Shown here one piece after another: positions 3,260 through 22,145 of a stretch of DNA of 64,000 nucleotides. The stretch is from a virus. Lineage: Duplodnaviria; Caudoviricetes. The stretch is taken from IMG/VR virus record IMGVR_UViG_3300020037_004820, one strand, 5' to 3'. A program made the translations under genes and the position numbers. Position 1 is the first letter of the stretch. Each line of letters begins with the position of its first letter. The notes under the pieces are model-generated. The model was not told the origin of the DNA, did not search any database, and saw only the letters and a program-made list of their open reading frames with translations.

Positions 3260-3448
3260 ATGTATAAAATAACATCGACTACTGACAATAAAAACGTGGG
3301 TAAAATCTCTATGATTTTACCGAAAGTCGGAGATGTTATTATTTTGGAGAATGATTATAATTTTCGCATAGATTATATAACTATAAATAATGATTTATAT
3401 ATATTATCTAATGCAAATTATATAGTGCATTTAGTAAAGGAAAAATAA
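3260..3448 (+). CDS. Small hypothetical protein
   Basis: 62-aa ORF with an AAGGT RBS, exactly filling the gap between two structural genes. Confidence 0.55.
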   Translation: MYKITSTTDNKNVGKISMILPKVGDVIILENDYNFRIDYITINNDLYILSNANYIVHLVKEK

Positions 3449-6400: not shown

Positions 6401-6658
6401 TTAACCTTTACGGGATTGCAAAATCCATCAGAAATAAGAATATTTGATTCTGCAAATCCAACAACTGAAATTACGGGACAAGAAGATATTACAACAGGAA
6501 TCTACACTGGTCTTATAGATCCTGCTACATATCCAACAGTAATTGCGGCTATTTTATCTCTTGGATATCAGAATATTAGACTTACAGGAATTGATATGTC
6601 TGCTGGTGATGTAACGATTCCTGTTCAACAACAAATAGATAGGCAGTATAGTAACTAA
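3449..6658 (+). CDS. Tail fibre/tailspike-like protein with a beta-helix region
   Basis: 1069 aa, GTG start with an AAGG RBS, T/A/G/N-rich and beta-helix-like. Two internal copies of WTRVTTTATVT...H.L.T...KTIT.LT..TFTF.CLNAGAASGTLT. Confidence 0.65.
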   Translation: MATFTITSSVNIDSLIGKTGGDTYNLNGGYLTIDQDSRYGYNQNVSASIGPFTGSASLGGTLKIDGTAVRLIPYTSGSGTVPTGSTTISIGGASGLLIGVYSGSGLNVAPTTSGSAMPATGFVKIKQWNGVAYATGSLTGITASATDVDRAGWIEVVGDQFAGVILNRLNNFIVTGTYYEIGTTDGNRATTYQIPSNGQLQYHAGVEVETIVSGTYEFYPCAGTRTALLANIATDDVRGKVCWIGTDGLLRFGHDGTNSTGGYIVPSGRKIRIANVFLVNCTTAARAVNVLPNATLATRFELATTGGGVITANCASISWYFNMAQPFSVSLNNVGICTSLLLSECASEITWDNVNVGQEAANTQIALTINTCLAGGTISDSIFTRAAQATAVPVVSMSDNDGFTFINCRSVSLTKAANAGATSFLLTRTNNTTFTNTTIGGGKIFLTTCSDVTCTDTIYYDDPALTTSVAIAMYAFEVGTNCLRCTFDGLTFGGLRMCQPFSGLLSILAAGCKEIKLRNLGTYASPLDLGDVVQNNVAWTRVTTTATVTKVAHGLKTNDVIYVTQASVAATTITLVAKTITRLTDDTFTFVCLNAGAASGTLTYFPSVTQTLVVIAAGATANDVRIQRCYCNHTRTSLYSADNSSKNIIFESVRSDWIDTFLTPQLNGTLKQVSGTPVFTAQTSCYGTHFIDGSIGDFPQNTAAQAWTRVTTTATVTANDHRLRTGMFVIVTVSSDTGAIILGQKTITVLTNNTFTFTCLNAGAASGTLTFVPLIDRFTIMMNESTADTSDQYTIDSGSVGFTSTGGLYMPVINDQITFETPDYILGYLNFPIAEAVMAGGTITNYDITYAINTGSGYGSFTKLSYPRTGAGGSNGSTNVTMTDTTGVEAGDYVFGTNIAGNATVVSITNGTTIVVSSANIGVVSGILRFSRLPLESNIPATGFKIKVRLKTTTTNATAITSLLFYLTSTTTTRAYQYPLDQYNLTFTGLQNPSEIRIFDSANPTTEITGQEDITTGIYTGLIDPATYPTVIAAILSLGYQNIRLTGIDMSAGDVTIPVQQQIDRQYSN

Positions 6659-7092
6659 TGATATTTGATGGAACCAATAAAATAATCACTCTTGAGGCGT
6701 CAGATACTCAATCGGTTTCAGTTCTTGAAATATATTCAAGATGGAAAGATTGGGTAGCTTTAGGTAATGCACAATATCCTCAAGCCATGTCTAATGTAGG
6801 TGGAGACTCTATTACGAGTATTCTCTTTTTAGGTAGCACCTTTTTCATGGAAAATGATTGGAAAATTCGCCCAAGAGAGGCTCATCAAGAATTAGAAATT
6901 ATAGGTAATTTATATACACGAGACGAATCTAATCCAATTATACCAACTACTGGAGTTTATAGAGTTCTTGTTACAACTAAAGTATCTAATCTAATTGATA
7001 CAATTGCTACAGGAGGCTCTAGTTTAACTGCGGCCGATGTTTGGGCATATAATAAAGCTTTAACAGTTGGCAAATTCTTAGCTCTTAAATGA
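6658..7092 (+). CDS. Small virion structural protein, paralogous to the N-terminus of ORF 1366
   Basis: FDGTNKIITL...LEIYSRWKDW...FFMENDWKI parallels INTSTKTIKL...KCLYSFLKEEW...FEFVEGWDI. TAATG coupling to the upstream gene. Confidence 0.6.
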   Translation: MIFDGTNKIITLEASDTQSVSVLEIYSRWKDWVALGNAQYPQAMSNVGGDSITSILFLGSTFFMENDWKIRPREAHQELEIIGNLYTRDESNPIIPTTGVYRVLVTTKVSNLIDTIATGGSSLTAADVWAYNKALTVGKFLALK

Positions 7093-7099
7093 TGTTACT

Positions 7100-7107
7100 C
7101 TAATTAT
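7100..7107 (+). promoter_or_regulatory. Putative late promoter, possibly giving a leaderless transcript
   Basis: CTAATTAT, 3 nt, then the ATG at 7111. No Shine-Dalgarno sequence. Confidence 0.5.
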
Positions 7108-7110
7108 AAC

Positions 7111-7788
7111 ATGGCCAATTATAACATTCCAAACGCCAGTGCGATCGTGGTCAAAAAATGTTCACATCCTGATAACTGTTTAGAGAAATATTTCTCTAAT
7201 GGGTATTGTCGTATTCATTATAATAGAATAAGAAAAACCGGAGAAGTAGGAGATTTAAACAGAACTCGAAGAGAAAATAGAACAAAAGTGAATGAACCGT
7301 GTATGGTTGAAGGATGTATTAAACTTCAAAAAAAATATGGTTTTTGTACTATGCATCATAGTAGATTTTGGGAAAATGGAGATACAGGAAAAGCAGGAAC
7401 ATTAAAATTTATAGATACAGCCCCCGAGGGATATAAAACTTGTCAAAATAAAGATTGTGAAATTCCTATAAAAACAATTGAAGAATTTCACACTATGAAA
7501 GATAAACGAACAGATAAATATAGAAAAGTTTCTTATTGTAAAATTTGTACAAGGGAAGAAATCGCTAAACGAAATTATAAATTATCAAAAATTGAATTTC
7601 GAAAATTATTAAATAAAGGAAAATGTGAAATATGTTACAAACCAACTGATTTAGTAGTTGATCATTGCCATAAGACAGGCAAGGTTAGAGGATTATTATG
7701 TAATAATTGTAATCGCGCTATAGGTTTGCTTGGAGATAATGTCCATTCATTATTTAATGCTTGGTTATATGTAAAGGAGAATTCCTAA
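7111..7788 (+). mobile_element. Free-standing homing endonuclease, endonuclease VII/HNH-like
   Basis: C-terminal CEIC...LVVDHCHKTGKVRGLLCNNCNRAIGLL EndoVII signature and two N-terminal C...C...G[YF]C..H..R repeats. The first 13 codons duplicate the start of the next gene. Confidence 0.85.
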
Positions 7789-7790
7789 TA

Positions 7791-10700
7791 ATGGCGCAAA
7801 ATATCCCAATGGCCTCGGCCATAGTGGCCGGCCTTTTCTCGCAAGAAGATAAAATCAAATTAGATGCCTTGCCTGGAAGTATAACAGGTTCTGCACCCGA
7901 TCCATTATCTTCTTCTATTCAACGATCACATCAACTTTCCGCTTCATACTTTAGTATGAGTAGTGGATCTATTGATACTCTATCTGCAACAACCGTTACT
8001 ATTGCTAATCTTATTGTTCAAAATAGCAATATAACAGCATCTTCTGTTCCTGATCCGCTGAGCAGCTCTGTTCAACGTGCTCACAACTTATCAGCCTCTT
8101 ATTTTGAGTTCATATCTGGTAATGTTCGAACATTGACGGGAACTGGTCTGCAAACAACATGGTTCTCTGCAAGCTCAGGGACTGTTCACGTTGAAACAGC
8201 CTCATATCTGACTGGAACTGAGTTCAAGGCTCGAACAGGATCGTTCTCAATCGTGAACAGTCATATTATGACTGGAACAAACTTCACAGCAAGCTCAGGC
8301 TCTGTTCACGTCTTAACAGCCTCTTATCTGACTGGAAACACGATAACAATCCAAGATTTGGTTGTGATCAATTCAAACATAACAGCCTCATCAGTCCTGT
8401 TATCGGCCTCAACAGTCCGTGCTCACAACTTATCGGCCTCATATTTCGAGTTTATATCAGGTAATGTTCGGACGTTAACTGGAACAACAAGCGTTACCAG
8501 TCCAAGAGGTGTGTTCACGGATTTAGTAGTAATTAACACAAATATCACAGCTACAATTCCTGATCCATTGAGCAGTTCTGTTCAACGTTCTCATAATTTA
8601 TCAGCTTCTTATTTTCAATTTATATCTGGCAACGTTCGAACATTAACAGGGACGGGAATATCAGGATCAAGTGGTACTTATCACGTATTAACAGGCGCTT
8701 ATCTATCTGGTAACACTTTAACAGTACAGGATTTAGTAGTAATAAACTCTAATATAACTGCTTCATCTGCGCTATTATCCTCATCTATAGTTCGTGCACA
8801 TAATTTGTCCGCTTCTTATTTCGAGTTTATATCAGGTAATGTTCGGACATTAACTGGTACAACGAGTGTAACCAGCCCAAGAGGAGTGTTCACTGATCTT
8901 GTAGTAACAAATACAAATATAACGGCAACAATCCCTGACCCATTAAGCAGTTCTGTTCAACGTTCCCACAACTTATCTGCCTCTTATTATGAATTTATAT
9001 CAGGAAACGTTAGAACACTGACAGGAACGGGAATATCAGGAAGCTCAGGAACTTTTCATGTTGTTACAGCATCTTATTTATCTGCAACAAGTAAAATAGT
9101 TGCAGGTAATTTAGATACTTGGGGAGCTGTATCCTTTAATGCTCCTATACAAGTATATATAGGAGGAGGTTTCACTACAGACGGATATAATTCTACAATG
9201 GGTGGAGGAAGTTTATCCGATGTTAATGATTTATCCGCCAGCAATGTTAGTGCATTTAACTTATCAGCTTCTTATTTTGAGTTCATATCAGGTAATGTTA
9301 AAACATTAACAGGAACAACAAGCGTTACCAGTCCAAGAGGTGTATTTACAGATTTAGTAGTAATAAATACAAATATTACAGCTACTATTCCTGATCCACT
9401 AAGCAGCTCTGTTCAACGTAGTCACAATTTATCTGCTTCATATTTTGAATTTATATCAGGGAACGTTAGAACATTAACAGGAACTGGTCTTCAATCTACA
9501 TGGGTTTCTGCTAGCTCAGGAACATATCATGTATTGACAGGTGCTTATCTATCTGGTAACACTTTAACAGTACAGGATTTGGTAGTAATCAATTCTAATA
9601 TAACGGCATCATCCGCGCTACTTTCTGCATCTATTATTAGATCACATAATTTATCCGCATCTTATTTCCAGTTCATATCAGGAAACGTTCGAACATTAAC
9701 AGGAACAGGTATATCAGGAAGCTCAGGGACATACCATGTTTTAACAGGTGCTTATATTGTTTCTACACTTCTAACAGGCACTGGAATATCTGGGTCTAGC
9801 GGTACTTATCATGTACTAACAGGAGCATATCTTACATCTACAATTGCTCAGATCTTTAATATTTCTGCCTCGTTTGCAGGGATTATAACAGCTTCTATAA
9901 ATAATATGTCAGCATCTGCTGCGGTAAAAGCTTTTAACTTATCAGCGTCTTATTATGAGTTTATATCTGGCAACGTTCGAACATTGACAGGCACAGGAAT
10001 ATCAGGATCTAGTGGTACTTATCATGTATTAACAGGCGCATATGTCACAGGGACAAGTGGTACATATCATCAATTTTCTGCATCATATTTATCAGCTACA
10101 CGCTTAACAGTAACTGATTTAGTCGCTATAAATACTAATATAACCTCTACAATACCTGATCCACTAAGCAGTTCTATTCAAAGAAGTCATAATCTATCGG
10201 CCTCTTATTTCGAGTTTATATCTGGCAACGTCAGAACATTGACAGGAACTGGATTGCAAGCAACCTGGTTGTCCGCAAGTTCGGGTACTTATCATGTATT
10301 AACAAGTACATATATAAAATCCTCGCGTATAGAAAATGATAGTTTATTAATAACTGCTTCGAATTTAATATTAAATTCTAAAGGAAATATTACTTTACAA
10401 AATTCTCAAAATAATATTGCGCTTATAGCGGATAATGGTAAAATACAATTCGGAGCATGGGGAACAAATAACGCTATTGAAGTTGTAACAGAAGATGCAG
10501 ATATTCAAATATCTGCACCCGGAAGAGGTGTTCGTATAGTGGCAACAGCAACTATTATACCTCAATTGTTAACCGCTTCCACAGGTCAATTTAATAATTT
10601 ATCAGCATCTTATTATCAATTTATATCAGGCAATGTTAGAACATTGACAGGGACGGGAATATCAGGATCTAGTGGTACTTATCATGTATTAACAGGCGCT

Positions 10701-11567
10701 TATATATCAGGAACAAGTTTATATATAACGAATTTAGTCGCTATAAATACAAATATAACAGCCTCTGTTCCTGATCCATTGAGCAGCTCTGTTCAACGTT
10801 CTCATAATTTATCAGCCTCTTATTTCCAATTCATATCAGGAAATGTTAGAACATTAACTGGAACAACCAGTATAACCAGTCCTAGAGGTGTATTTACAGA
10901 TTTAGTAGTAACAAATACAAATATAACAGCGACTATTCCTGATCCATTGAGCAGCTCTATACAAAGAGCACATCAGTTATCGGCCTCTTATTTCCAATTC
11001 ATATCAGGTAACGTTCGAACATTGACGGGAACAGGAATTGGCTCAACGCAAATATCTGGGACATATATTACTGCATCACAATTAGACATTAATTTAGTCA
11101 ATAATATATCTCCTCAAAAATTAATAGTGAAAAACACAGCTTTTAGTTCTTCAGCAAGTGGTACGCAATTTATTCCCGAATTGTCTCAATCTATAAATGC
11201 AAATGAAACTTGGGCAATCAAATTTATGATACATCAATTTTGTTCAGGTTCACAGGGAGCACGATACACTATTTTCGCGCCTACTGGTTCTTTCATAATG
11301 GGATGGACAACGGTGTACTCAAATTCTGATCTTGGATCAGTTGCAAGACATTACACTTTTTACGCGAATTCGTTAAATACAGAAATACCCTTTTCGGTCG
11401 GAAACAGTGCTGCTCAATTTGAATATGCACATCAAATTGAATTAACAATTCGAAATGGCGCAAATGCTGGTGATGTAAAGTTGGGAGTTAGAAGAATGAC
11501 TGCTGCTGATTTTCTACACGTTACAACAGGTTCTTACATTCACTCAATTAAGGGTGAAAAAAATTAA
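7791..11567 (+). CDS. Long repetitive fibre protein (probable triple beta-helix shaft with a C-terminal globular head)
   Basis: ATG at 7791 follows AAGGAG (7774-7779). 13 near-identical LSASY[FY][EQ]FISGNV[RK]TLTGT cores with 5-residue periodicity. About 150 non-repetitive beta-rich residues at the C-terminus. Confidence 0.8.
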   Translation: MAQNIPMASAIVAGLFSQEDKIKLDALPGSITGSAPDPLSSSIQRSHQLSASYFSMSSGSIDTLSATTVTIANLIVQNSNITASSVPDPLSSSVQRAHNLSASYFEFISGNVRTLTGTGLQTTWFSASSGTVHVETASYLTGTEFKARTGSFSIVNSHIMTGTNFTASSGSVHVLTASYLTGNTITIQDLVVINSNITASSVLLSASTVRAHNLSASYFEFISGNVRTLTGTTSVTSPRGVFTDLVVINTNITATIPDPLSSSVQRSHNLSASYFQFISGNVRTLTGTGISGSSGTYHVLTGAYLSGNTLTVQDLVVINSNITASSALLSSSIVRAHNLSASYFEFISGNVRTLTGTTSVTSPRGVFTDLVVTNTNITATIPDPLSSSVQRSHNLSASYYEFISGNVRTLTGTGISGSSGTFHVVTASYLSATSKIVAGNLDTWGAVSFNAPIQVYIGGGFTTDGYNSTMGGGSLSDVNDLSASNVSAFNLSASYFEFISGNVKTLTGTTSVTSPRGVFTDLVVINTNITATIPDPLSSSVQRSHNLSASYFEFISGNVRTLTGTGLQSTWVSASSGTYHVLTGAYLSGNTLTVQDLVVINSNITASSALLSASIIRSHNLSASYFQFISGNVRTLTGTGISGSSGTYHVLTGAYIVSTLLTGTGISGSSGTYHVLTGAYLTSTIAQIFNISASFAGIITASINNMSASAAVKAFNLSASYYEFISGNVRTLTGTGISGSSGTYHVLTGAYVTGTSGTYHQFSASYLSATRLTVTDLVAINTNITSTIPDPLSSSIQRSHNLSASYFEFISGNVRTLTGTGLQATWLSASSGTYHVLTSTYIKSSRIENDSLLITASNLILNSKGNITLQNSQNNIALIADNGKIQFGAWGTNNAIEVVTEDADIQISAPGRGVRIVATATIIPQLLTASTGQFNNLSASYYQFISGNVRTLTGTGISGSSGTYHVLTGAYISGTSLYITNLVAINTNITASVPDPLSSSVQRSHNLSASYFQFISGNVRTLTGTTSITSPRGVFTDLVVTNTNITATIPDPLSSSIQRAHQLSASYFQFISGNVRTLTGTGIGSTQISGTYITASQLDINLVNNISPQKLIVKNTAFSSSASGTQFIPELSQSINANETWAIKFMIHQFCSGSQGARYTIFAPTGSFIMGWTTVYSNSDLGSVARHYTFYANSLNTEIPFSVGNSAAQFEYAHQIELTIRNGANAGDVKLGVRRMTAADFLHVTTGSYIHSIKGEKN
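7896..11036 (+). repeat. Modular coding repeats within the fibre gene
   Basis: Recurring blocks PDPLSSS[VI]QR[SA]H, LSASYF[EQ]FISGNVRTLTGT, GISGSSGTYHVLTGAY and TSVTSPRGVFTDLVV. DNA copies differ mainly at synonymous sites. Confidence 0.9.
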
Positions 11568-11632
11568 CAATTTGAATGCAGATATAATCTGTCTATTAGT
11601 TAAACTAGAAATTAGTTAAAAGTATACGAATA

Positions 11633-11652
11633 TTTGTTCAATTTTGAACAAA
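11633..11652. promoter_or_regulatory. Palindromic operator or RNA hairpin before the glycan cluster
   Basis: TTTGTTCAA-TT-TTGAACAAA immediately upstream of the GGAG RBS of ORF 11665. Confidence 0.4.
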
Positions 11653-11664
11653 ATGGAGATATAA

Positions 11665-12438
11665 ATGAAGTCATTTAAGAAAGATTTTGATATTATATTA
11701 ACAAAACTACAGACTAGAGAAAATTTTGCGTTTATTCGATTTTCGGACGGTGAACTATTTGTATTACAGAATAAATCTTTGAGATTAGATGATACTGGAA
11801 CCTGGATAGATGATGTATTAGCTGGACCAACATATACAGCAGAAGATTATAAATTTTTTGATCCATCACAGCATCAAGAGTTTAGAAATAGACTAATGGA
11901 TTCTATGTTACATGTACAAAATAATTATTTTGTAGGAATAAGTTGTCCATGTTGCGTTTCGATGACTAATTATAAATGGATGAAAACATTAATGCAAAAT
12001 AGAGAATATACCTGGGCAAATCTTTTTGTTAATAGTAATTATCCAAAATTCATATCTGAATTTTTACCTGAATTAAAGAAAAGAAAAATTGTATTGATTT
12101 GTAATGAAAAAGCTATAATAAAAAACTCGGAACTAAATATAGTTAAAGATTTTAGAATTGGCAGAAACGCAATGATCGAAAATATAGATTTGCATTTAGA
12201 TATTTCTAAATGGATTGAAGAAAATCAAATAGAGAATCATGTATTCTGCTTCTCAGCATCGTCATTAACTAATATAACGGTCAATGAATTGTATAAAAAA
12301 CATTCTAATAATACATATTTGGATATAGGTACAACTTTGAATAGAAATTTTGGTTTTCCTCTAAATCGTGACTATCTTAGAGCTTATTGGAGTGAGAAAG
12401 ATCATCCTGATCTTCATAAAACTTGTATATTTATATGA
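11665..12438 (+). CDS. Putative GT-D-fold (DUF1792-like) glycosyltransferase
   Basis: FIRFSDGE motif near the N-terminus and YLDIG motif near the C-terminus, matching the GT-D pattern. Confidence 0.6.
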   Translation: MKSFKKDFDIILTKLQTRENFAFIRFSDGELFVLQNKSLRLDDTGTWIDDVLAGPTYTAEDYKFFDPSQHQEFRNRLMDSMLHVQNNYFVGISCPCCVSMTNYKWMKTLMQNREYTWANLFVNSNYPKFISEFLPELKKRKIVLICNEKAIIKNSELNIVKDFRIGRNAMIENIDLHLDISKWIEENQIENHVFCFSASSLTNITVNELYKKHSNNTYLDIGTTLNRNFGFPLNRDYLRAYWSEKDHPDLHKTCIFI

Positions 12439-13352
12439 TTGAAAAATTACAAGAAATTGCAAAGAATAATAAAGGTAAATTATTATCCGACAAATATGTT
12501 ACAAATAAGTCCAAGTATTTATGGGAATGTCAAAAAGGACATCAATGGTTAGCAACAGCGGGAAATGTGAAACAAGGTTCATGGTGTCCTATTTTTCCCT
12601 GTTTCAAAAAAGCAAAAAAAAATATTAATATATTAATTGACTTAGCTACTAAAAATAATGGTAAATGTTTATCAACTGAGTATTGTAATAGAAATACTAA
12701 ATATTTATGGGAATGTGAAAAAGGACATCAATGGAGATCAAATGTAAATCATATATTAAATGATGAAACATGGTGTCCAAAATGTATAAAACCAGGATGT
12801 ATACGAGACTTAGAATGGTTGTACAATTTAGCAAAAGAAAATAATGGTAAATGTTTGTCAACTGAATATAAAGGAAGAAATAGAAAATATTTATGGGAAT
12901 GTGAAAAAGGACATCAATGGTCGGCAACTTTACAAAATATAAGTAGAACAGCATGGTGCCCAAATTGTCGAGATTCCATTGGAGAAAGATTAATATCAAA
13001 AATATTAATTTTAATGGAGATTGATTTTATTAAAGAATATCCATTACAGAATTGTATATATAAACGGACACTTAGAGGAGATTTTTTTCTTCCTAAATAT
13101 AATACTTTAATTGAATTTGACGGCATTCAACATTTTAAACAGTCAAAAGGACGATGGAAAAAAGTGTCATTATCTGATAATCAAATTAGAGATAAAATAA
13201 AGAATAAATTTTGTAAAGAAAATAATATAAATTTGATTAGAATACCTTATACAGAATTAAAAAATATAGAAACTATACTTACAGAAGAATTTCAAAATGG
13301 ATTTACACGTACCCTTAATATGTCAGATATTTTGTTAAATTCATTAATTTGA
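12435..13352 (+). mobile_element. Free-standing endonuclease with three Zn-ribbon repeats and a DUF559/Vsr-like nuclease domain
   Basis: Three KYLWEC.KGHQW...WCP repeats and a C-terminal DFFLP...IEFDGIQH...DKIKNKFCKENNINLIRIPY. ATGA overlap at 12435. Flanked by two versions of the host gene 3' end. Confidence 0.8.
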
Positions 13353-13437
13353 CTTTGCATTAACTCGTGATTATCTAAGAGCATACTGGACCAATCAATA
13401 TCATCCTGATTTGGAAAAAACTTGCATATGGATCTAA
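13348..13437 (+). pseudogene. Orphaned original 3' end of the GT-D-like gene
   Basis: Translates to FDFALTRDYLRAYWTNQYHPDLEKTCIWI*, 20/29 identical to FGFPLNRDYLRAYWSEKDHPDLHKTCIFI* encoded at 12349-12438. Confidence 0.9.
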
Positions 13438-14066
13438 CTTTCGATATAAATACAGATTGTATAAAATGTAATCATGATTATATTACACAATGTACTTCCA
13501 ATGTAGAATTGATAGATTGTACAGAATTAGCGTGGGATTTTATATTACGATTACGAAATGAAAATTCCTCTAACTTTATAGATCAACATGAAATAACTAA
13601 AGAAGAACATTATGCTTTTATGGAAAAATATGGAAAGAATTATTTCATATTTTATAGAACATGTAACGGGTGCAAATGTGGGGCATGTTATTGTCCATCT
13701 GGTTTTATAGGAATTGTAAATAATGATATACGATTATGTACAGATTCAAGTTATAGACGAGAAGGTGTGGCTGTAGAAATGTTAGAGTTTGTTAGAGATC
13801 ATTTTCCTAATGCATATGGAAGAGTAAAAGCAAATAATATTGCAAGTCAAAAAGTTTTTGAAAAAGTTAATTATTGGTCATTTAAAACTGATGAATATTT
13901 CTTTTATTACGTTCCTGAAGATCTTAGAGAGGACGAACAAGTTTTGCGCTTTCTAAATAAGCATCTTATGAGATGTTTTTATTGTTCAAAAATTGTTCCA
14001 TCAAGTGATAATGAAGAAGGATTATCTGTTTGTAAAAATTGTATAACTATCCATGAGGAATTTTAA
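13428..14066 (+). CDS. GNAT-family N-acetyltransferase
   Basis: YRREGVA acetyl-CoA-binding loop and VKANNIASQKVFEK motif. C-terminal CxxC...CxxC. ATG at 13428 overlaps the orphan fragment. Confidence 0.75.
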   Translation: MDLTFDINTDCIKCNHDYITQCTSNVELIDCTELAWDFILRLRNENSSNFIDQHEITKEEHYAFMEKYGKNYFIFYRTCNGCKCGACYCPSGFIGIVNNDIRLCTDSSYRREGVAVEMLEFVRDHFPNAYGRVKANNIASQKVFEKVNYWSFKTDEYFFYYVPEDLREDEQVLRFLNKHLMRCFYCSKIVPSSDNEEGLSVCKNCITIHEEF

Positions 14067-14717
14067 ATGAGTTATAATCCATTTCAAGCAGTTGAAGAAT
14101 TTGAGAAAGCATTGGCTGAATATTGCGGCGCACCTTATTGTGTTGCAGTAGATTCATGTACAAATGCTTTCTTTTTAACCCTTAAGTTTTTTCAATTAGA
14201 AAATATGGATCTTGTTTTTCCTTTAAAAACGTATTTAAGTATGCCTATGATGGCTTTAGCAACAGGTAATAGAGTAATATTTGATGATTATGCATGGAAA
14301 GGAATATATCCTATAACTGTTTTTAAACGAATTGATTTATTGCTTATAGATTCTGCTAAACGTCTTAGCAGAAACGATTATTTTCCAAATTCTGTTATGT
14401 TTAAATCATTTCATATGAAAAAGCATATAACAAGTGTATCAGGTAAAGGTGGAGCAATTCTAACGGATAATAAAGCACTATATGATTGGTGTGTAAAGGC
14501 TCGTTGGGAAGGTCGAACACCTTACACTGATTATAAAGACCCTGCGCAGGATATAACAATTGTTGGATATAATATGAATATGACGCCAGAGGAAGCTACG
14601 TTTCTTCATCGTCAATTGCAGAAATGCCCAGACTATATGCCTGATTTAGATGAGCCAGGTGGTTATAGAAATTTAGATGAGTTTACAGTATTTAAAAACT
14701 GCAAGAGAATAAAATGA
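14067..14717 (+). CDS. DegT/DnrJ/EryC1/StrS-family sugar aminotransferase, short form
   Basis: VEEFEKALAEYCGAPYCVAVDSCTNA, IDSA, SFHMKKHI (PLP lysine), GKGGAILTDN and GYNMNM. Only 216 aa. Confidence 0.85.
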   Translation: MSYNPFQAVEEFEKALAEYCGAPYCVAVDSCTNAFFLTLKFFQLENMDLVFPLKTYLSMPMMALATGNRVIFDDYAWKGIYPITVFKRIDLLLIDSAKRLSRNDYFPNSVMFKSFHMKKHITSVSGKGGAILTDNKALYDWCVKARWEGRTPYTDYKDPAQDITIVGYNMNMTPEEATFLHRQLQKCPDYMPDLDEPGGYRNLDEFTVFKNCKRIK

Positions 14718-15379
14718 TAAACCCTGAAAATAGATATACAAATTTACAAAAAGGTCATTATAATGCGGGCACATCTGATCATTTAGAGCACAATGCTAAT
14801 TCAGATTATTGGAGCATATTATTGGAGCCTGTATATTCCTCAGATACTAAAGGAAAAATTGCTTTAGACTTTGGTTGCGGTAAAGGACGTAATATACAAA
14901 ATCTAAAGCAATTTGAATTTAAACGTGTAGATGGCGTAGATATTTCACATATGAATTATATTCATTGTGTGGATCGTTTTCCAGATTCCAAAATATATAA
15001 TAATAACGGCGTAGACCTGTCTGAAATAGAAGATTCAGTATATGATTTTGTAATGTCGACAATAGTTTTTCAACATATACCTGTGTGGGATATTCGTAAC
15101 CAATTATTAACAGAAATATATAGAGTTATGAAAGAAACAGGAATATTCTCATTTCAAATGGGATATGGATCGTCGATAGAACCTGGACATTCTTCTTATT
15201 TCGGTAATTTTTATGAGGCAAGCTCCACTAATGGAGGAGCAGATGTCCAAATTACTGACGAACAAGATTTAATAAATGATTTAAAATTTATAGGATTTAA
15301 AAACATAAAAACTGTTGTTTCCGAATCTTTTAGCGATAATAATCATACGCATTGGCTGTATATTAAGTGCGAAAAATAA
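14714..15379 (+). CDS. Class I SAM-dependent methyltransferase
   Basis: ALDFGCGKGR, GVDIS, YDFVMSTIVFQHI and EIYRVMKETG motifs. Confidence 0.9.
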   Translation: MINPENRYTNLQKGHYNAGTSDHLEHNANSDYWSILLEPVYSSDTKGKIALDFGCGKGRNIQNLKQFEFKRVDGVDISHMNYIHCVDRFPDSKIYNNNGVDLSEIEDSVYDFVMSTIVFQHIPVWDIRNQLLTEIYRVMKETGIFSFQMGYGSSIEPGHSSYFGNFYEASSTNGGADVQITDEQDLINDLKFIGFKNIKTVVSESFSDNNHTHWLYIKCEK

Positions 15380-15390
15380 GGAGAATTAAA

Positions 15391-15978
15391 ATGATACTAA
15401 ATATATTTTTAGATTTTGATGGTGTTGTCCATCCAATGAAAGAAGAATTTCATCAAGCTATGCAAAAAATGGAAGAATATGATCTTGCTCGATATGGCGA
15501 TAGATATTTTCAAGAGTATCCTAATAATTTTAGAGAGTTGGGCGGCAAAAAAATATTTTGGCTACCCTATTACTTTGGATATGCTAACAGAATTGGTCAA
15601 ATATTAGAAAAATTTGAAAACAGATTTAATGAAATAAGATTATGGGTTCACTCAAACTGGAGAGGTTTGGGAGACGAAATAATTGGACAAATATTAGAAG
15701 GAACAACTCTTCATAAATATTATAAAGGAATATTACCTTTACAATATGCAAGTCAAAGTAGATTCATCAATATTTTAGGATTTATGGAAGATTATTGTCC
15801 TCCAGATGAAAATCATACATGGATAGCATTAGATGATTTAGACGATCTATTTCATCATGTACCTGAACATTTTGTGAAATGTGAATCTGAAATAGGTTTC
15901 ACTAAGAAATGCGAAAATCAATTAATCAGATTATTATCTGTTAGAAGCAATTTATTGCTTGCAAAGAGTTTATCATAA
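15391..15978 (+). CDS. HAD-superfamily phosphatase (Swiss-Army-knife RNA-repair-like HAD domain)
   Basis: IFLDFDGVV, HSNWR and WIALDD motifs. AGGAG RBS before the ATG at 15391. Confidence 0.75.
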   Translation: MILNIFLDFDGVVHPMKEEFHQAMQKMEEYDLARYGDRYFQEYPNNFRELGGKKIFWLPYYFGYANRIGQILEKFENRFNEIRLWVHSNWRGLGDEIIGQILEGTTLHKYYKGILPLQYASQSRFINILGFMEDYCPPDENHTWIALDDLDDLFHHVPEHFVKCESEIGFTKKCENQLIRLLSVRSNLLLAKSLS

Positions 15979-16823
15979 TGAAAATAGCTTTAGCATTACA
16001 TGGATATTTTAATAATAAAGCAGATCCAGAATCTGGAGATAATGGATTTAAATATCTATGCGATATTCTATTAAATAAATACGACGTAGATGTATTTGTA
16101 CACTCTTGGGATGTTGCTCAAAAAGAGTATATAAATGCTCTATATGAGCCTAAATACTCTATTATAGAGGAACAAGCTTCCTTTAAAGAGGCAATGAAAG
16201 CTCATAATGTTTCTCAAGAATATTTTGATGAAGGATTTGATAGAGATAATAGTCCTTATGCAGCTTGTAAAATAGAATCTACATTATCTTTTCTAGCTTC
16301 TAGAAAGAAATCATTAGATTTAGTATTTGAATATGAAGAAAAAACTAATTCATCCTATGATGTTGTTATATCTGCTAGATTTGATCTTGGACAACGTGAT
16401 AAATTTGGTAAATGGAAATATTATGTTTCCCAAATGAATTTTGAACCATTGTTGGATATGAATTTTCTATATTCGGCAATGTGGGATCAATTGAATGCAG
16501 GCTATGCTGATCAATGGTTCTATTCCAATTCAAATAATATGAAATTAGTATCTATGGCATTTGATGCTGCTTTATATGAATACTTTGTACCTAATAGTAA
16601 ATATGAAAAAGCTGTTACACAAGGTTGGCCAGATTCTTTACAATATGACGGAGGATTTTATGATCCTGCACAGTTTTCCAATGAAAAATTGAAAGTATAT
16701 AGAGATGCTAGAAATCCCGTTTCGGAGATGAAATATCCTAAATGGCAATGTGTGAACAATCATATTCTCTACAAATGGCATATGATCACATATGATTTGT
16801 ATGAAAAATCGAGGTTTGTATAA
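15978..16823 (+). CDS. Putative glycosyltransferase (WavE-related type)
   Basis: MKIALALHG, VDVFVHSWD, YDVVISARFD and ADQWFYS, a pattern typical of polysaccharide-locus proteins. Confidence 0.55.
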   Translation: MKIALALHGYFNNKADPESGDNGFKYLCDILLNKYDVDVFVHSWDVAQKEYINALYEPKYSIIEEQASFKEAMKAHNVSQEYFDEGFDRDNSPYAACKIESTLSFLASRKKSLDLVFEYEEKTNSSYDVVISARFDLGQRDKFGKWKYYVSQMNFEPLLDMNFLYSAMWDQLNAGYADQWFYSNSNNMKLVSMAFDAALYEYFVPNSKYEKAVTQGWPDSLQYDGGFYDPAQFSNEKLKVYRDARNPVSEMKYPKWQCVNNHILYKWHMITYDLYEKSRFV

Positions 16824-16827
16824 TACA

Positions 16828-17658
16828 ATGAGTTACGGTAATATATATGTAGTAATACAGGGGCCATATTCTTTACACATCCAAGATATGTTGTCACAGC
16901 TTAAAGATCTATCTAATATTAGATATTGTGTTTCCACATATAAAAATATATATAAGAAAAAAATAGAAGATTTAAATGTAATATATTCTGATCCTTTAAT
17001 ATTGCCTAACAACAAATTTATAAATAACATTAAGCAATATAAAGGTGAAGGAATATATTGTCAACAAATATATTCCACTTTTATAGGTCTTTACACACTT
17101 AAGCAAAAATATGATATACAAGAAAATGATATTGTTATAAAATGTAGAACTGATGAATATTTTAATTTAGAAAAATTTTTGTCTTTTATTAAAAATGATA
17201 AAGTGTTATATAATGTAGATTGGGTTTATGATGAAAATTCAATGTCTGATCATTTATTTTGTTGTAATTTTAACCTTATGTACAAATCATATTGTGATAT
17301 GATTAATATATTAATCACAGCAGCAGAAGATACTGAAAATGTTTTTAATCCTTTACAAAAAATAGAAACGGTTATATGGAGATATTTATCTAAATATAAA
17401 AATAACTTAAAAAAAGTTCCTATAAATATAAATAATCTTTTCCCTTGTAAATTTGTGAGAAATAATGCAGGTATAGTTTGTATTCTTAATGATAAAGGAA
17501 AAGATATATCTATAAATCATTTAGAAATAATTTCTTCTTCAAATTCTCAAAAAGAGAAAGTAAAAAATTTAGAAGTATATAACAAATTTTTTGATACTAG
17601 AAAAGTAGTTCAACCTTTCTCAGAAGAAAATATGCTTAAAACTTATGGAGACAATTAG
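16828..17658 (+). CDS. WavE-like lipopolysaccharide synthesis protein/putative glycosyltransferase
   Basis: VVIQGP, VSTY, VIKCRTDE and SDHLF motifs. Extremely AT-rich. Confidence 0.55.
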   Translation: MSYGNIYVVIQGPYSLHIQDMLSQLKDLSNIRYCVSTYKNIYKKKIEDLNVIYSDPLILPNNKFINNIKQYKGEGIYCQQIYSTFIGLYTLKQKYDIQENDIVIKCRTDEYFNLEKFLSFIKNDKVLYNVDWVYDENSMSDHLFCCNFNLMYKSYCDMINILITAAEDTENVFNPLQKIETVIWRYLSKYKNNLKKVPININNLFPCKFVRNNAGIVCILNDKGKDISINHLEIISSSNSQKEKVKNLEVYNKFFDTRKVVQPFSEENMLKTYGDN

Positions 17659-17712
17659 AATTTATATGAAAATTTATAAGAAGATATTAGTGTAAAGTAA
17701 TTAAGGAGTAAT

Positions 17713-18417
17713 ATGACGAATGATTTAGCTTTTATTTTATATTCACATTCAAGTTTAGAATGGATCTTGCCTGCATTTACTGGACAAGCTTTTGAACATT
17801 TTCCTATTAATTGTCCAAAATATTTATTTTATGACAAATATTTAGACATAGCAGAATATGATTGTAAACAATATTCTAATGAGGATAAATACTCTAAACG
17901 ACTTCTAACCTGTTTAGAAAATATTCAAGAACCATTTGTTCTAATTCATCACGAAGATATGATCTTCTATGACGACGTGGACACGGATCAGTTCTCCTAT
18001 TATCTAGAAATCATGAAAACGAGCGATTTTAGCTATATTAAATTATTGAAAGGAGGATTGTCTCAACAACAGCCTCAACAATATATGGAAGGTGTATTTA
18101 AGTTACAAGATGATGAACCTTATAGATATGCAGTGCAACCTGCTATTTGGAGAAAATCTGATTTAATAAAAATCTTGAAACATTTTGATAATAAATCAAT
18201 ATATGAATTAGAAGAGGGTGGCGTATCTAAGTACATGTTTGAAAATAACTTTAAGTGCTTATTTGCATATAACCAAGGGGATAGTAAAAGAGGAATGTAT
18301 CATTGGGACAATTCTAAATATCCATTCATTGCGACTGCTCTGAATAAAGGTGAATGGAATATGGTTGAATATGAAATTGAAATAGAAAATCTTAGATCGG
18401 AATATGCATTGGTATAA
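17713..18417 (+). CDS. Putative GT-A-like glycosyltransferase
   Basis: YSKRLLTCLENI...VLIHHEDMIF...QPAIWRK...YELE pattern, as in EPS-locus proteins. Cluster context. Confidence 0.5.
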   Translation: MTNDLAFILYSHSSLEWILPAFTGQAFEHFPINCPKYLFYDKYLDIAEYDCKQYSNEDKYSKRLLTCLENIQEPFVLIHHEDMIFYDDVDTDQFSYYLEIMKTSDFSYIKLLKGGLSQQQPQQYMEGVFKLQDDEPYRYAVQPAIWRKSDLIKILKHFDNKSIYELEEGGVSKYMFENNFKCLFAYNQGDSKRGMYHWDNSKYPFIATALNKGEWNMVEYEIEIENLRSEYALV

Positions 18418-18430
18418 AAGGTAGGTTTAA

Positions 18431-19381
18431 ATGAATATTGCAGTTGTAACAGGTGTAGCGGGCTTTATTGGATATCATATGGCCAAATTGTTGGTTCAAA
18501 ACAATTGGTTTGTATATGGTATAGATAAAAAAGCATTAGATTATGATCGTAAAGACCTTTATAATTCAAATGGAAATTTCAAATTTATTCAAGAAGATAT
18601 TTGTAATCTAAAGAAGCTACCGGACTGCGATTATGTATTCAATTTCGCCGCAGAGACACACGTACATAATTCTATTATAGATAGCGAGCAGTTCATACAC
18701 TCTAACGTGGATGGAGTGCGCAATTTGTTAGAAATTATCAGAAAGCAAGCTGATAATGTGGTTAAAAAACCTATATTTTTTCATATATCAACAGATGAAG
18801 TATATGGCGATCAAATTGATTGGTTAGCATGTGAGGAAGATAAGTTAAATCCATCTTCCCCTTATTCAGCGTCAAAAGCTGCTGCTGATATGCTTATTTT
18901 AGCATGGGCAAGAACTTATGGATTAGAATATGTTATTTTACGTCCATCAAACAATTATGGAACTCATCAACATCCTGAAAAATTTATACCTTTATCTATA
19001 AAATTAGCAATTTGGGACAAGAAGATCAGGTTGCATAATCGCGGAACACCCAAACGAACATGGCTTCATGTTCAAGATACCTGTTCAGCAATACTAAAGT
19101 TAGTAGAAAAGAATGCTAGAGGTATATATAATGTTTCTGGAAATGTTGAACAAACTAATATTACAACTGCTACTCAAATATTGAAATATTTAAATTATAC
19201 AGTAGATGAAGACACTTTTGATCTAGGATATATAAGACCTGGGCAAGATATGAGATATAATATAGATGTAACTAAACTAAAAGATTTGGGATGGAAACAT
19301 TTAAAGAATTTTGAAGAAGAGTTGCCTAAGATTATAGAATGGTATATTGAATATCCTCAAGGAAGATTGTTTAATGAATAA
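18431..19381 (+). CDS. rmlB: dTDP/NDP-glucose 4,6-dehydratase
   Basis: VTGVAGFIG, FAAETHV, HISTDEVYG, PYSASKAA, SNNYG..QHPEKFIP, R.WLHV.D and RPGQDMRY motifs. Confidence 0.92.
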   Translation: MNIAVVTGVAGFIGYHMAKLLVQNNWFVYGIDKKALDYDRKDLYNSNGNFKFIQEDICNLKKLPDCDYVFNFAAETHVHNSIIDSEQFIHSNVDGVRNLLEIIRKQADNVVKKPIFFHISTDEVYGDQIDWLACEEDKLNPSSPYSASKAAADMLILAWARTYGLEYVILRPSNNYGTHQHPEKFIPLSIKLAIWDKKIRLHNRGTPKRTWLHVQDTCSAILKLVEKNARGIYNVSGNVEQTNITTATQILKYLNYTVDEDTFDLGYIRPGQDMRYNIDVTKLKDLGWKHLKNFEEELPKIIEWYIEYPQGRLFNE

Positions 19382-19407
19382 AACAATACACTATTCAAAA
19401 GTTATCA

Positions 19408-19415
19408 CTATTTAG
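19408..19415 (+). promoter_or_regulatory. Putative late promoter carried with the LAGLIDADG gene
   Basis: CTATTTAG, 3 nt, then the ATG at 19419, with no RBS. Same spacing as at 7100. Confidence 0.5.
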
Positions 19416-19418
19416 TGT

Positions 19419-20279
19419 ATGAAAATTAGTAAAGAACAACATGCATCTATTATAAAAGAGCTAGAAACGAAATCTCAAAAAAGTGTTGCACAATTATATG
19501 AAGTCTCTCAAACAACTATAGGAAATATAGCTAGAAAATACAATATTCAAAGAGATATAGCTAGACTGAATACTTGTAGAAGAAAGTGTGATTTTGATTA
19601 CTTTAAGACAATAGATTCAAAAGAGAAGGCATATTGGTTAGGATTTATATGCGCGGATGGATGTATTCTACAAAATTATACTAAAGTAACGTTACAAGTA
19701 AAAGATAAAGAAATAATAGATAAATTCAAAATAGCAATAAAGTCAGATCATCCTGTTTCTTTTTATAATAAAATGGACAAAAGAACAGGTAAACAATATG
19801 ATAGATATGTTTTATCTATTAATGGTAAAGAATTTAGACAAAACTTAATAAACGCGGGTATATCTTATGATAAAACAGATAATCTAAATATTCCAAATAT
19901 AGATGAGAAATATTATTCATATTTCTTTGCAGGATTATTCGATGGAGACGGTTCTGTTAGCAATACTGGTAAAGTATATACTAAAAATGGGAAAAAAAGT
20001 TGGAAATATAAATGCAGAATTAGTTTAATAAGTACAAAAGAAGTTTTAGAGCATTTAATTCTATATATACAAAATAAGTTAGGTGTAAAGGAACTAAAAC
20101 TAACTAAAGTTACAAAAAATAAAGCAAATGTATGGAAAATGCATTTATATAAAGAGGCTAGTATTTTTCTTGATTGGATATATCAAGATTCGACATTTTC
20201 TTATTTACAAAGAAAATACATAAAATATCTAGATATAAAAAAAGGAGAAAATTTATTATGTCAAATCAAATCAAGATGA
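19419..20279 (+). mobile_element. Free-standing LAGLIDADG homing endonuclease with an N-terminal HTH
   Basis: YFKTIDSKEKAYWLGFICADGC and FFAGLFDGDGSV motifs, C-terminal YLQRKY, and HTH VAQLYEVSQTTIGNI. Confidence 0.92.
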
Positions 20280-21655
20280 TCTGCATGGACCTCGATGGTG
20301 TATTAGTTGATGCAAGAGATATACATTATATTGCTTTAAATAAAGCATTAGAAGATGTAGATGAAAAATATATAATTTCTAAAGAAGAACATCTCTCTAC
20401 ATTTGACGGACGATCAACTTCTGTTAAACTTAGAATGCTAACAGAGTTAAAAGGATTACCTTCTATTTGTTATCAAGAAATTTGGGAAAAGAAACAATTA
20501 TATACTATAGAAGAAATTGAAAAATTTGAGCCAGATTATAGACTTGGACATATTTTAGAACAACTAACTTTAGAAGGATATACATTAGTTGTAGCATCTA
20601 ATTCTATTCGTCCTAATGTTTTAAAAATGTTAGAGAAGAAAGATATTCTTAAATATTTTACTTATTATTTTTCTAATCAAGATGTTGATCAACCTAAGCC
20701 TCATTGTGAAATGTATCTAAGAGCTATGTTAGCTTGTGGTGTAGGACCTAAAGAAACTCTTATTTTAGAAGATTCTCATATAGGAAGATTAGCTGCTTTA
20801 AACTCTGGGGCTTATTTATGTCCTATTATTGATCCACATGATGTAACTTATGAAAAGATAAAATCTTATTTAACATTTCATTCTACTAATTTACAACCAA
20901 AATGGCAGGGAGGCTCTATGAATGTAGTTATACCGATGGCAGGAAAAGGTTCAAGATTTGCACAAGTTGGGTATACTTTTCCTAAACCTCTTATTCCAGT
21001 AAATAAAATGAACGGTAAACCTATGATACAGGTTGCAGTTGAAAATATAAACACAGAAGCTAGATTTATATATATTGTTCAAAAAGAACATTATGAGAAG
21101 TATAATTTGAAGACTTTGTTAAATTTGATTACCCCAAATTGTGAAATTATTCAAGTAGATGGAGTTACCGAAGGTGCTGCATGTACTGTATTGTTAGCAG
21201 AGCAATTTATCAATAATGATTCTCAATTGTTTATTGCAAATTCTGATCAATTTGTTGAGTGGGATTCTAATCAATTTTTCTATTCTATGCAGGGGGATTC
21301 GGTTGACGCAGGATTGGCAACATTTGAAAGTTCTCATCCGAAGTGGTCATTCGCAAAACTTGATAATAATGGATTTGTATCAGAAGTTGCGGAGAAGAAT
21401 CCAATTAGCAATCTAGCTTCTGTCGGTTTCTATTGGTATAAACATGGCAAAGATTTTGTCAGTGGCGCAAAAAAAATGATTATTAATGATAGACGAGTTA
21501 ATAATGAATTTTATGTTTGTCCTGTTTTGAATGAACTTATCAATGAAGGAAAGAAAGTAAAAGTTCATAATGTTGAACGAATGTGGTCATTAGGGACGCC
21601 AGAAGATTTGGTTTATTTTGAGGAAAATTATGAAAACAACCATTATAGCACATAG
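20258..21655 (+). CDS. Fused HAD phosphatase / sugar nucleotidyltransferase
   Basis: N-terminal DLDGVL, ASNS, PKP and EDS HAD motifs. C-terminal VIPMAGKGSRF...PKPLI, ANSDQ, EVAEK and LGTPEDL. AAGGAG RBS before the ATG at 20258. Confidence 0.9.
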   Translation: MSNQIKMICMDLDGVLVDARDIHYIALNKALEDVDEKYIISKEEHLSTFDGRSTSVKLRMLTELKGLPSICYQEIWEKKQLYTIEEIEKFEPDYRLGHILEQLTLEGYTLVVASNSIRPNVLKMLEKKDILKYFTYYFSNQDVDQPKPHCEMYLRAMLACGVGPKETLILEDSHIGRLAALNSGAYLCPIIDPHDVTYEKIKSYLTFHSTNLQPKWQGGSMNVVIPMAGKGSRFAQVGYTFPKPLIPVNKMNGKPMIQVAVENINTEARFIYIVQKEHYEKYNLKTLLNLITPNCEIIQVDGVTEGAACTVLLAEQFINNDSQLFIANSDQFVEWDSNQFFYSMQGDSVDAGLATFESSHPKWSFAKLDNNGFVSEVAEKNPISNLASVGFYWYKHGKDFVSGAKKMIINDRRVNNEFYVCPVLNELINEGKKVKVHNVERMWSLGTPEDLVYFEENYENNHYST

Positions 21656-22145
21656 AGCAAATCTGTACGGACCAAATCCAAATACAGAAAACACATTAGA
21701 AGCCATTCAGGATTGTATTAAACGTGATATAGACATGGAATTGGATATATGGCATAAAGATGGAAAATTCTTTTTAGGACATGATGAACCTAGATTAGAA
21801 TTTGATCCTTTTACTTATAATTTTAGAGAAGTATATGTATGGTTTCATTGTAAAACAATTGAAACATTAGATAAACTATTAACTGTACAATTTTATAGAT
21901 CGCAAAATTATAGTAATCAATATGCTGTGTTTTTTCATGATAAAGATGCTACAACTTTGACTTCTGAAAATAATTTTTGGACATATCCTGGAAAAGATTT
22001 ATTTAAAAAGTCTATAGCTGTAATGCCTGAATATGTATCTAAAGAGTATGAGCAATATACAAAAGAATTGTTTTTGAATAATATGATTGCTGGTGTATGT
22101 ACTGATTACCCTCTCGAATGGGTACAGTTACGAAAGGAAAAATAA
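21630..22145 (+). CDS. Glycerophosphodiester phosphodiesterase (PLC-like) protein
   Basis: IIAHRAN, ENT, ELDIW, LGHD, WFHCK and GVCTDY motifs. Confidence 0.8.
   Translation: MKTTIIAHRANLYGPNPNTENTLEAIQDCIKRDIDMELDIWHKDGKFFLGHDEPRLEFDPFTYNFREVYVWFHCKTIETLDKLLTVQFYRSQNYSNQYAVFFHDKDATTLTSENNFWTYPGKDLFKKSIAVMPEYVSKEYEQYTKELFLNNMIAGVCTDYPLEWVQLRKEK

Follow-up and report, generated by a model that had tools for sequence, protein, structure and literature searches.

Duplicated gene ends beside free-standing nuclease genes in the fiber and glycan cluster of an uncultured T4-like phage

Introduction

How does a free-standing nuclease gene enter the end of a coding sequence and leave the invaded gene whole? 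The question is raised by IMG/VR record IMGVR_UViG_3300020037_004820, a 64,000-nucleotide stretch of DNA from a virus (Duplodnaviria; Caudoviricetes) that we analyzed as a whole and refer to as the window. Three nuclease genes, here called elements 1, 2, and 3, begin at positions 7111, 12435, and 19419, each at the terminus of another gene, and a sequence-only reading had proposed that their three unrelated families share an insertion strategy in which the element supplies a substitute for the gene end that it displaces. We found that the three nuclease genes are present as described (Pfam matches to Endonuclease_7, DUF4379/CapR, and LAGLIDADG_3/_1, respectively), and that an alternative version of the gene end lies on the other side of elements 1 and 2, but not of element 3. 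We consider it likely that elements 1 and 2 are terminus-replacing cassettes in the fiber and glycan cluster of the phage, and that element 3 is a plain insertion.

The contig comes from an uncultured, T4-like tailed phage. The window has a guanine-plus-cytosine (GC) content of about 30%, carries T4-type baseplate and terminase genes, and has every gene on one strand (+ in the coordinates given here); the terminase is 35–39% identical to terminases of Microcystis, Flavobacterium, and cyanobacterial phages. The region under study contains, in order, a gene for a protein of 144 amino acids (aa), element 1 (an EndoVII/HNH nuclease gene), the gene for a repetitive 1258-aa fiber, a GT-D-like glycosyltransferase (GT) gene, element 2 (a zinc-finger nuclease gene), sugar-modification genes ending with an epimerase/dehydratase gene (18431–19381), element 3 (a LAGLIDADG nuclease gene), and a HAD-nucleotidyltransferase fusion gene. 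Homing-endonuclease folds are found in all three elements: Endonuclease_7 in element 1, Vsr-like in element 2, and LAGLIDADG in element 3.

Searches with the fiber and GT, by DNA and by protein, found no close relatives in the GenBank phage set, and single-protein searches found none in IMG/VR. JGI contigs that are 99.3–99.99% identical to the window were found in three metagenomes; all have the same nuclease genes, and no presence/absence polymorphism of the nucleases was seen among these near-identical contigs (L004–L008). The contigs of other phages with which the window was compared are designated by L-numbers (L009, L010, L012, L094, L262, L263, and others). Duplicated gene ends were sought in a six-frame comparison of the nuclease flanks against a null, and duplicated gene starts in alignments anchored at the start codons (1485 pairs).

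Results

Two Copies of the Glycosyltransferase Gene End Flank Element 2

The last 29 codons of the GT gene (11665–12438) are present twice, as diverged copies on either side of element 2 (12435–13352). The copy at 12349–12438 is the 3′ end in use. The second copy (13348–13437) comes right after the nuclease stop, is preceded by an in-frame stop, and is an orphan of 29 codons plus a stop whose frame is intact; its stop region overlaps the ATG at 13428, so that the start of the downstream GNAT-like gene (13428–14066) is embedded in it. The two copies scored 118 in the six-frame comparison, against a null maximum of 41, and gene-end copies of this kind are 71–77% identical in DNA. The conserved C-terminal motif of the GT family (811 hits) fits both copies, and the end in use has Phe where nearly all family members have Trp.

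The same arrangement was found in other phages. Among the ten GT relatives with genomic context (64–77% protein identity), those of L009 and L094 are directly followed by a related nuclease and then by an intact orphan, and their duplicated ends scored 143 and 119 (118–143 for the window and these two contigs, against a null maximum of 45). Occurrence of the nuclease is patchy, with three occupied sites and seven empty ones at which the next gene comes directly after GT (L010, L012/L013, L095, L096, L258, L259/L260, and L261). No second copy of the GT end was found at any of 154 more distant GT loci, among the matches listed. The insertion recurs at one codon: the starting points of the three orphans are no more than about five codons apart, at ...PL|TRDY.... 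In all three phages the final codons of the orphan overlap the next ATG, which belongs to the GNAT-like gene in the window and L094 and to a small hydrophobic open reading frame (ORF) in L009, and the working GT ends of the nuclease-free contigs L095, L010, L258, and L261 overlap the next start in the same way. Because the orphan still overlaps the start of its native neighbor as nuclease-free alleles do, it is probably the resident end of the gene.

The end in use is linked to the nuclease. At the junction codon, all three orphans have Thr and all three ends in use beside a nuclease have Asn. Where the context is known, five of five Thr alleles are nuclease free and three of five Asn alleles have a nuclease; the expectation that empty alleles would carry the orphan-type terminus was borne out at the GT site in five of the seven, which have Thr. 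When the GT genes of L009 and L094 were compared, the last 96 nucleotides (nt) were 85% identical and the preceding 300 nt 70% identical (p = 0.003), and this was the sole pair of 21 in which identity rose toward the end. Between these two phages, protein identity of the nucleases is 71% and DNA identity of the GT bodies is 70%. The gene bodies of the window and L094 are closer to each other (identity ~0.8 over the 3′ half), but the nucleases of this pair are only 41% identical. The step between L009 and L094, together with the contrast between the window and L094, suggests that the GT end in use is inherited with the nuclease cassette rather than with the rest of the gene.

The orphans differ from each other mostly at synonymous sites, and the ratio of nonsynonymous to synonymous differences per site (pN/pS) was 0.17–0.35 for orphan pairs, the same as for functional ends. 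As this ratio matches that of working ends, the orphans would have diverged while in use and been stranded separately in each lineage, which points to orphaning that was independent and fairly recent. Within a genome, the two copies have a synonymous divergence (pS) of 0.53–0.72, equal to the divergence between the ends of different phages. Comparison with nuclease-free relatives gave 64–83% identity over 75 nt for orphans and ends in use alike, with no clear separation. Judged from these comparisons, terminus replacement at the GT end appears real and well supported.

The neighborhood of GT varies in other respects. In L009 (6889–6995), L258 (~3440–3545), and L261 (~3335–3440), GT is followed by a small, conserved, hydrophobic ORF (~34 codons) whose ATG overlaps the GT stop; the window is without it. 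In the distant relatives P0055, P0068, P0076, P0096, P0101, and P0103, GT and a GNAT acetyltransferase domain form a single fusion protein; the window has a separate GNAT-like gene, the next one after GT, with element 2 in between.

Element 2 Encodes a Vsr-like Nuclease with Zinc-Finger Repeats

The N-terminal two-thirds of the free-standing element 2 nuclease consist of repeats, in which Pfam recognized three DUF4379 domains and CapR, with DUF723 also among the zinc-finger modules. The C-terminal 128 residues gave a structure model with a predicted local distance difference test (pLDDT) score of 92, and Foldseek matched this nuclease domain to Vsr (1cw0, 1vsr) and I-Bth0305I (3r3p) with E values of ~1e-3 and a probability of 1.00. 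Residues D39, E50, H56, and D76 of the domain are invariant in 17 sequences. The nuclease had been called DUF559-like, a label that holds at the level of the fold. In a profile search against the PDB, the only match was the DUF559 structure 3hrl, which was nonsignificant (E 0.19), and Pfam matches were below the cut-off.

When we surveyed the IMG/VR relatives of this nuclease, 4 of the 73 that could be evaluated were flanked by duplicated 3′ ends of unrelated genes, in three distinct contexts. The hosts are a helicase-like gene, another transferase-like gene, and a small gene; each orphan abuts the next start, and one is frameshifted. Flank duplication thus appears to recur in the family of the element 2 nuclease, yet it is not the rule.

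Relatives of the nuclease also lie directly upstream of a conserved 281-aa gene, in L009 (10175–10960, a second copy in that contig) and in L010 (2973–3866); the window homologue of the 281-aa gene is at 15978–16823. From this gene order, the glycan cluster appears to have a second site of recurrent insertion, upstream of the 281-aa gene. The flanks of the L009 second copy and of the L010 copy scored 45 and 36, and no convincing duplication was found there.

Two of the zinc-finger modules of the element 2 nuclease (12652–12734 and 12838–12920) are 88% identical in DNA, and contigs L004 and L006 are broken within this gene, in its internal repeats, or just ahead of it. As the breaks fall at the repeats, assemblies of genes of this type are likely to be fragile.

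Element 1 Begins with a Second Version of the Fiber Start

Element 1 (7111–7788) is a free-standing homing endonuclease gene of the HNH/EndoVII type (Pfam Endonuclease_7, E 8e-16), and it is followed by the tail-fiber gene (7791–11567; 1258 aa). The start of element 1, MANYNIPNASAIVV, and the start of the fiber, MAQNIPMASAIVAG, are alike over 13–14 codons. At the DNA level the two differ at most synonymous sites, including the codon for Ser (AGT vs TCG). Among the 1485 gene-start pairs in the window, this pair ranked first in the start-anchored test. In comparisons with the element 1 start, the window's own fiber start scored 48, the L012 fiber start came second with 27, and the next best match scored 21. 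Two homologues of element 1 align from residue 13–14 on only, and the L012 copy starts MKKIKQCSHPD, directly at its first zinc motif. Because the homologues are without this piece, the first ~13 codons of element 1 are probably foreign to the nuclease and derived from a fiber gene. The start-anchored and homologue alignments place the orphan fiber 5′ end, 14 codons that now form the in-frame nuclease start, at 7111–7152, and the first ~14 codons of the fiber, which are the end in use, at 7791–7832.

Element 1 is 52% identical to the L262 nuclease and 41% identical to the L012 nuclease. The fiber start is nuclease free in L012 and occupied in L262, where the nuclease lies directly upstream of the fiber homologue and starts with a fiber-like MSQKIP (~6 codons), 15 of whose 18 bases match the L012 fiber start. 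We conclude that terminus replacement at the fiber start, too, appears real, and that it is reasonably supported. At 75 distant loci with an EndoVII domain, no flank duplication was found. As a rule for whole nuclease families, the proposed shared strategy therefore does not stand, given that flank duplication was seen in only about 4 of 73 Vsr-like and 0 of 75 distant EndoVII relatives.

As the sequence-only reading had pointed out, AAGGAG is embedded in the last codons of both nuclease genes that lie at a 5′ end. In element 1 it is at 7774–7779, where it forms a ribosome-binding site (RBS) for the fiber start at 7791, and in element 3 it is at 20242–20247. A perfect AAGGAG occurs at only 6 of the 55 gene starts in the window. 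That reading had also noted that the first codons after each of these sites end unusually often in C or G. GC content at third codon positions (GC3) over the first 15 codons is indeed 0.67 for the fiber and 0.53 for the HAD gene, and the typical gene-wide value is ~0.17, but the run in the HAD gene is not recoding, because it is also present in the nuclease-free allele of L010. About half of the codons at the L262 fiber start, which stands beside a nuclease, end in C or G, and the start of the nuclease-free L012 fiber is not GC3 rich. In these three sequences, GC3-rich fiber starts in use are compatible with synonymous recoding away from an AT-rich target.

The fiber gene contains many internal DNA repeats (8306–11032; segments of 120–450 nt that are 81–89% identical), which fits a modular repeat fiber. 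Beyond it, directly upstream of the GT start, 57 nt (11608–11664) are what remains of the 3′ end of a nuclease gene of the EndoVII type, and they supply the GT RBS. The remnant matches L012 9942–10000 with a score of 43, against a null maximum of 18. In L012, where the nuclease gene is intact (9355–10014), the match covers its last 59 nt and includes part of the conserved C-terminal helix of the nuclease, which in the window is out of frame. From this remnant, it is probable that a nuclease gene once lay upstream of GT and has since been lost. No orphan GT start was found upstream of the L012 nuclease.

Element 3 Separates Two Overlapping Genes

Element 3 (19419–20279; LAGLIDADG_3/_1) is a free-standing double-motif LAGLIDADG nuclease gene with an N-terminal helix-turn-helix (HTH), and its stop falls inside codons 7–8 of the HAD-nucleotidyltransferase gene (20258–21655). 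In the empty allele L010, the epimerase stop overlaps the HAD start. In the window that native start, ATGAATAAA (19374–19382, at the epimerase stop), remains at the end of the epimerase gene and is followed by the insert, the new RBS, and a new ATG with three new codons, after which homology to L010 resumes; the first four codons of the HAD gene are thus rebuilt. Terminus replacement had been proposed here as well, and we found instead only a rebuilt start: element 3 appears to be an ordinary insertion between two overlapping genes, with no duplicated end. The N-termini of the LAGLIDADG and HAD proteins, for which a weak similarity had been claimed, ranked 1227th of the 1485 pairs, which is the level of chance. 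We also considered an orphaned epimerase 3′ end in the LAGLIDADG tail and rejected it, as the protein scores of 15–19 fell within the null (mean 19.7) and this tail belongs to the nuclease family itself.

The N-terminus (HTH) and the tail of element 3 are shared with a homologue in the unrelated contig L263, which is also immediately upstream of a HAD-family gene. This recurrence suggests the conserved region that encodes HAD motif I as the target of element 3. Downstream of the LAGLIDADG/HAD pair in L263 (3648–5593) are small genes whose products all end in ...YSD(I/L/V)DPYGEE(N/D/I)WE....

An Allelic Patch Elsewhere in the Window

The gene at 34–750, which is fiber associated, contains a patch of ~430 nt (94–528) with 79 differences between two co-occurring strains that are 99.99% identical elsewhere. 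The changes are not adenine specific, which argues against a diversity-generating retroelement, and the patch looks like the product of allelic recombination.

Discussion

We propose that the mobile unit in elements 1 and 2 would be the nuclease gene together with an adjoining diverged copy of the end of its host gene, and that the cassette would enter inside the last 29 codons of a resident GT gene or the first ~14 codons of a resident fiber gene. The nuclease would cut a nuclease-free allele, and in repair of the break from the donor, homologous invasion would be confined to the gene-body side. The other side would be joined nonhomologously back to the broken recipient end, so that the resident end would be stranded as an orphan with its inner edge near the cut. 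The gene would work on with the donor's end, which differs from the resident end at the junction and would presumably escape cutting. In the 5′ case, the orphaned start would continue in frame into the nuclease ORF, the 3′ end of which would hold the RBS of the rebuilt fiber start. For element 3, the likely target is the stretch of the HAD gene that codes for motif I, just downstream of the insert, and only the start region would have been rebuilt. The parts of this scheme that we infer are cleavage, the protection of the imported ends from it, and repair from one side only.

Several observations weigh against this interpretation. Most relatives of both nuclease families are without flank duplication. 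The association of Asn and Thr with the presence of the nuclease has a one-sided Fisher p of ~0.08 over 10 contexts, with relatedness ignored, and two nuclease-free alleles have Asn at the junction. The identity step between L009 and L094 is borderline after correction for 21 comparisons and comes from a single pair. All GT relatives are ~70–78% identical in DNA, which places out of reach a comparison in the fungal style (see below), in which the native end is nearly identical to that of a sister lineage. At element 1, the blind flank search gave a score of 40 against a null maximum of 45, which is the level of chance, and no close nuclease-free fiber allele was found in the collections searched. 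A GTG at codon 13 may be the true start of element 1, in which case the in-frame fusion would be incidental. Finally, the orphan fiber start has a GC3 of 0.53, which is a misfit to the idea that resident ends are AT rich and incoming ends recoded.

The polarity of the GT arrangement could be the reverse, with the end in use being resident, the nuclease inserted at the gene boundary, and the orphan carried as a passenger from an earlier host of the nuclease. Over segments of 69–75 nt, all identities among orphans and ends in use lie at 70–88% and are mostly indistinguishable, and the nuclease ORFs of L009 and the window end within or beside the orphan, so that the nuclease gene itself includes the edge of the orphan. 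However, the orphans keep their native overlap with three different downstream genes, and a passenger would need to bring those starts with it. Moreover, the L009 and L094 nucleases are closely related, yet the orphans of these two phages are 76–78% identical and the ends in use 85–88% identical. We regard the reverse polarity as unlikely.

Alternatively, an illegitimate insertion could have copied the gene end locally, and the copies could have diverged in situ with no foreign end involved. Short duplications are known at illegitimate joins, and no donor allele would be needed. At a within-genome pS as high as that between phages (pN/pS ~0.3), however, an untranslated copy should have lost its frame and its conserved residues in three lineages, and in the fiber pair the Ser codon differs at all three positions. 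In-place duplication is therefore distinctly improbable. For element 1 alone, the fiber-like N-terminus of the nuclease could be due to chance or to functional mimicry, as it is only 13–14 residues long and did not exceed the null in the blind search. This explanation is very improbable in view of the first rank of the pair in the anchored test, the match to the L012 fiber start as well, the nuclease homologues without the piece, and the second, independent fusion in L262. Many phage homing endonucleases are encoded in introns, but it is extremely improbable that the gene ends are exons of self-splicing introns or parts of intein-containing genes with the orphans in use, because positions 6000–22000 gave no match to a group I or II intron family in Rfam even at E <= 1, both host genes form full ORFs typical of their families when the orphan is left out, and in-frame stops precede the orphans and separate the ORFs.

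The closest parallel to terminus replacement by elements 1 and 2 is in fungal mitochondria, in which mORF "gene hybrids" have been described for atp6 of Allomyces macrogynus and for atp6, atp9, cox2, and nad3 of Glomus (PMC3630166). The inserted C-terminus of these hybrids is in phase and used, the native C-terminus lies ~1 kb downstream, and the two copies are 64–81% identical in DNA and encode similar protein (PMC3630166). Elements 1 and 2, but not element 3, likewise stand between two diverged copies of a gene end of which the proximal one is in phase. They differ from the hybrids in having a phage host, in encoding Vsr-like/zinc-finger and HNH/EndoVII enzymes in place of LAGLIDADG or GIY-YIG enzymes, and in including a 5′-end version, where the nuclease ORF opens with the orphaned start and contains the RBS of the rebuilt gene. 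In addition, the phage orphans overlap the start of the next gene, and the phage case is known from sequence alone.

Free-standing phage endonucleases reportedly spread by intronless homing, as Belle and coworkers are said to have found in 2002 for SegF, SegG, and MobE of T4. To our knowledge, the classical cases are intergenic and without a duplicated gene end, whereas here the insertion falls within a coding sequence and a substitute end keeps the gene intact. Like the T4 Seg and Mob genes and F-CphI, the nuclease genes of the window lie between or beside conserved genes, are patchy in occurrence, and have empty sites; their flanks may be inherited with them. F-CphI of cyanophage S-PM2 is a homing endonuclease with an EndoVII motif (PMC6083498), and element 1 shares its EndoVII catalytic domain.

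I-Bth0305I and Hef represent a Vsr-like "EDxHD" family of homing endonucleases (PMC3239194; PDB 3r3p). Element 2 resembles I-Bth0305I in its Vsr-like fold with invariant Asp, His, and Asp, although sequence similarity is below threshold and CapR/DUF723/DUF4379 zinc fingers take the place of NUMOD/HTH in the DNA-binding part. In the portion of their report on which we draw, Barth et al. describe a "beads on a string" DNA-binding design of CapR, DUF723, and DUF4379 modules in phage homing endonucleases and T5orf172 nucleases, and they note for ICP1 and other phages that the mosaic boundaries of genetic exchange are marked by nuclease genes (PMC10448857). The similarity of L009 and L094, which steps up ~100 nt before the nuclease gene, is reminiscent of such boundaries; duplicated ends of host genes are not described in that portion of the account. 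We found no description of duplicated gene ends around phage nuclease genes in the open-access papers searched, which is not proof of absence.

More tentatively, terminus-replacing cassettes might be a general route by which free-standing homing endonucleases enter genomes that offer homology on one side of the cut only. The inner edge of the orphan would then mark the position of cleavage and the imported end would be the determinant of immunity, and in AT-rich phages repeated rounds might leave GC3-rich patches at gene ends, of the kind present at the fiber starts of the window and L262 and absent from that of the nuclease-free L012. We doubt that the present cases carry the generalization this far, and offer it as a possibility.

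If terminus replacement by elements 1 and 2 is correct, the free-standing homing endonucleases of phages would not be limited to intergenic gaps and, by providing a substitute end, could invade coding sequence with no need of an intron or intein. Orphan fragments beside nuclease genes would become interpretable, and they may be a common source of odd small ORFs and of "split gene" calls in annotation. The boundaries of the orphans would provide testable predictions of cut sites for uncharacterized nucleases by computation alone. The hosts here are a tail-fiber gene and a glycan-synthesis gene rather than the usual replication genes, and the process would form chimeric genes and move gene ends between phages, including those of fibers that determine host range.

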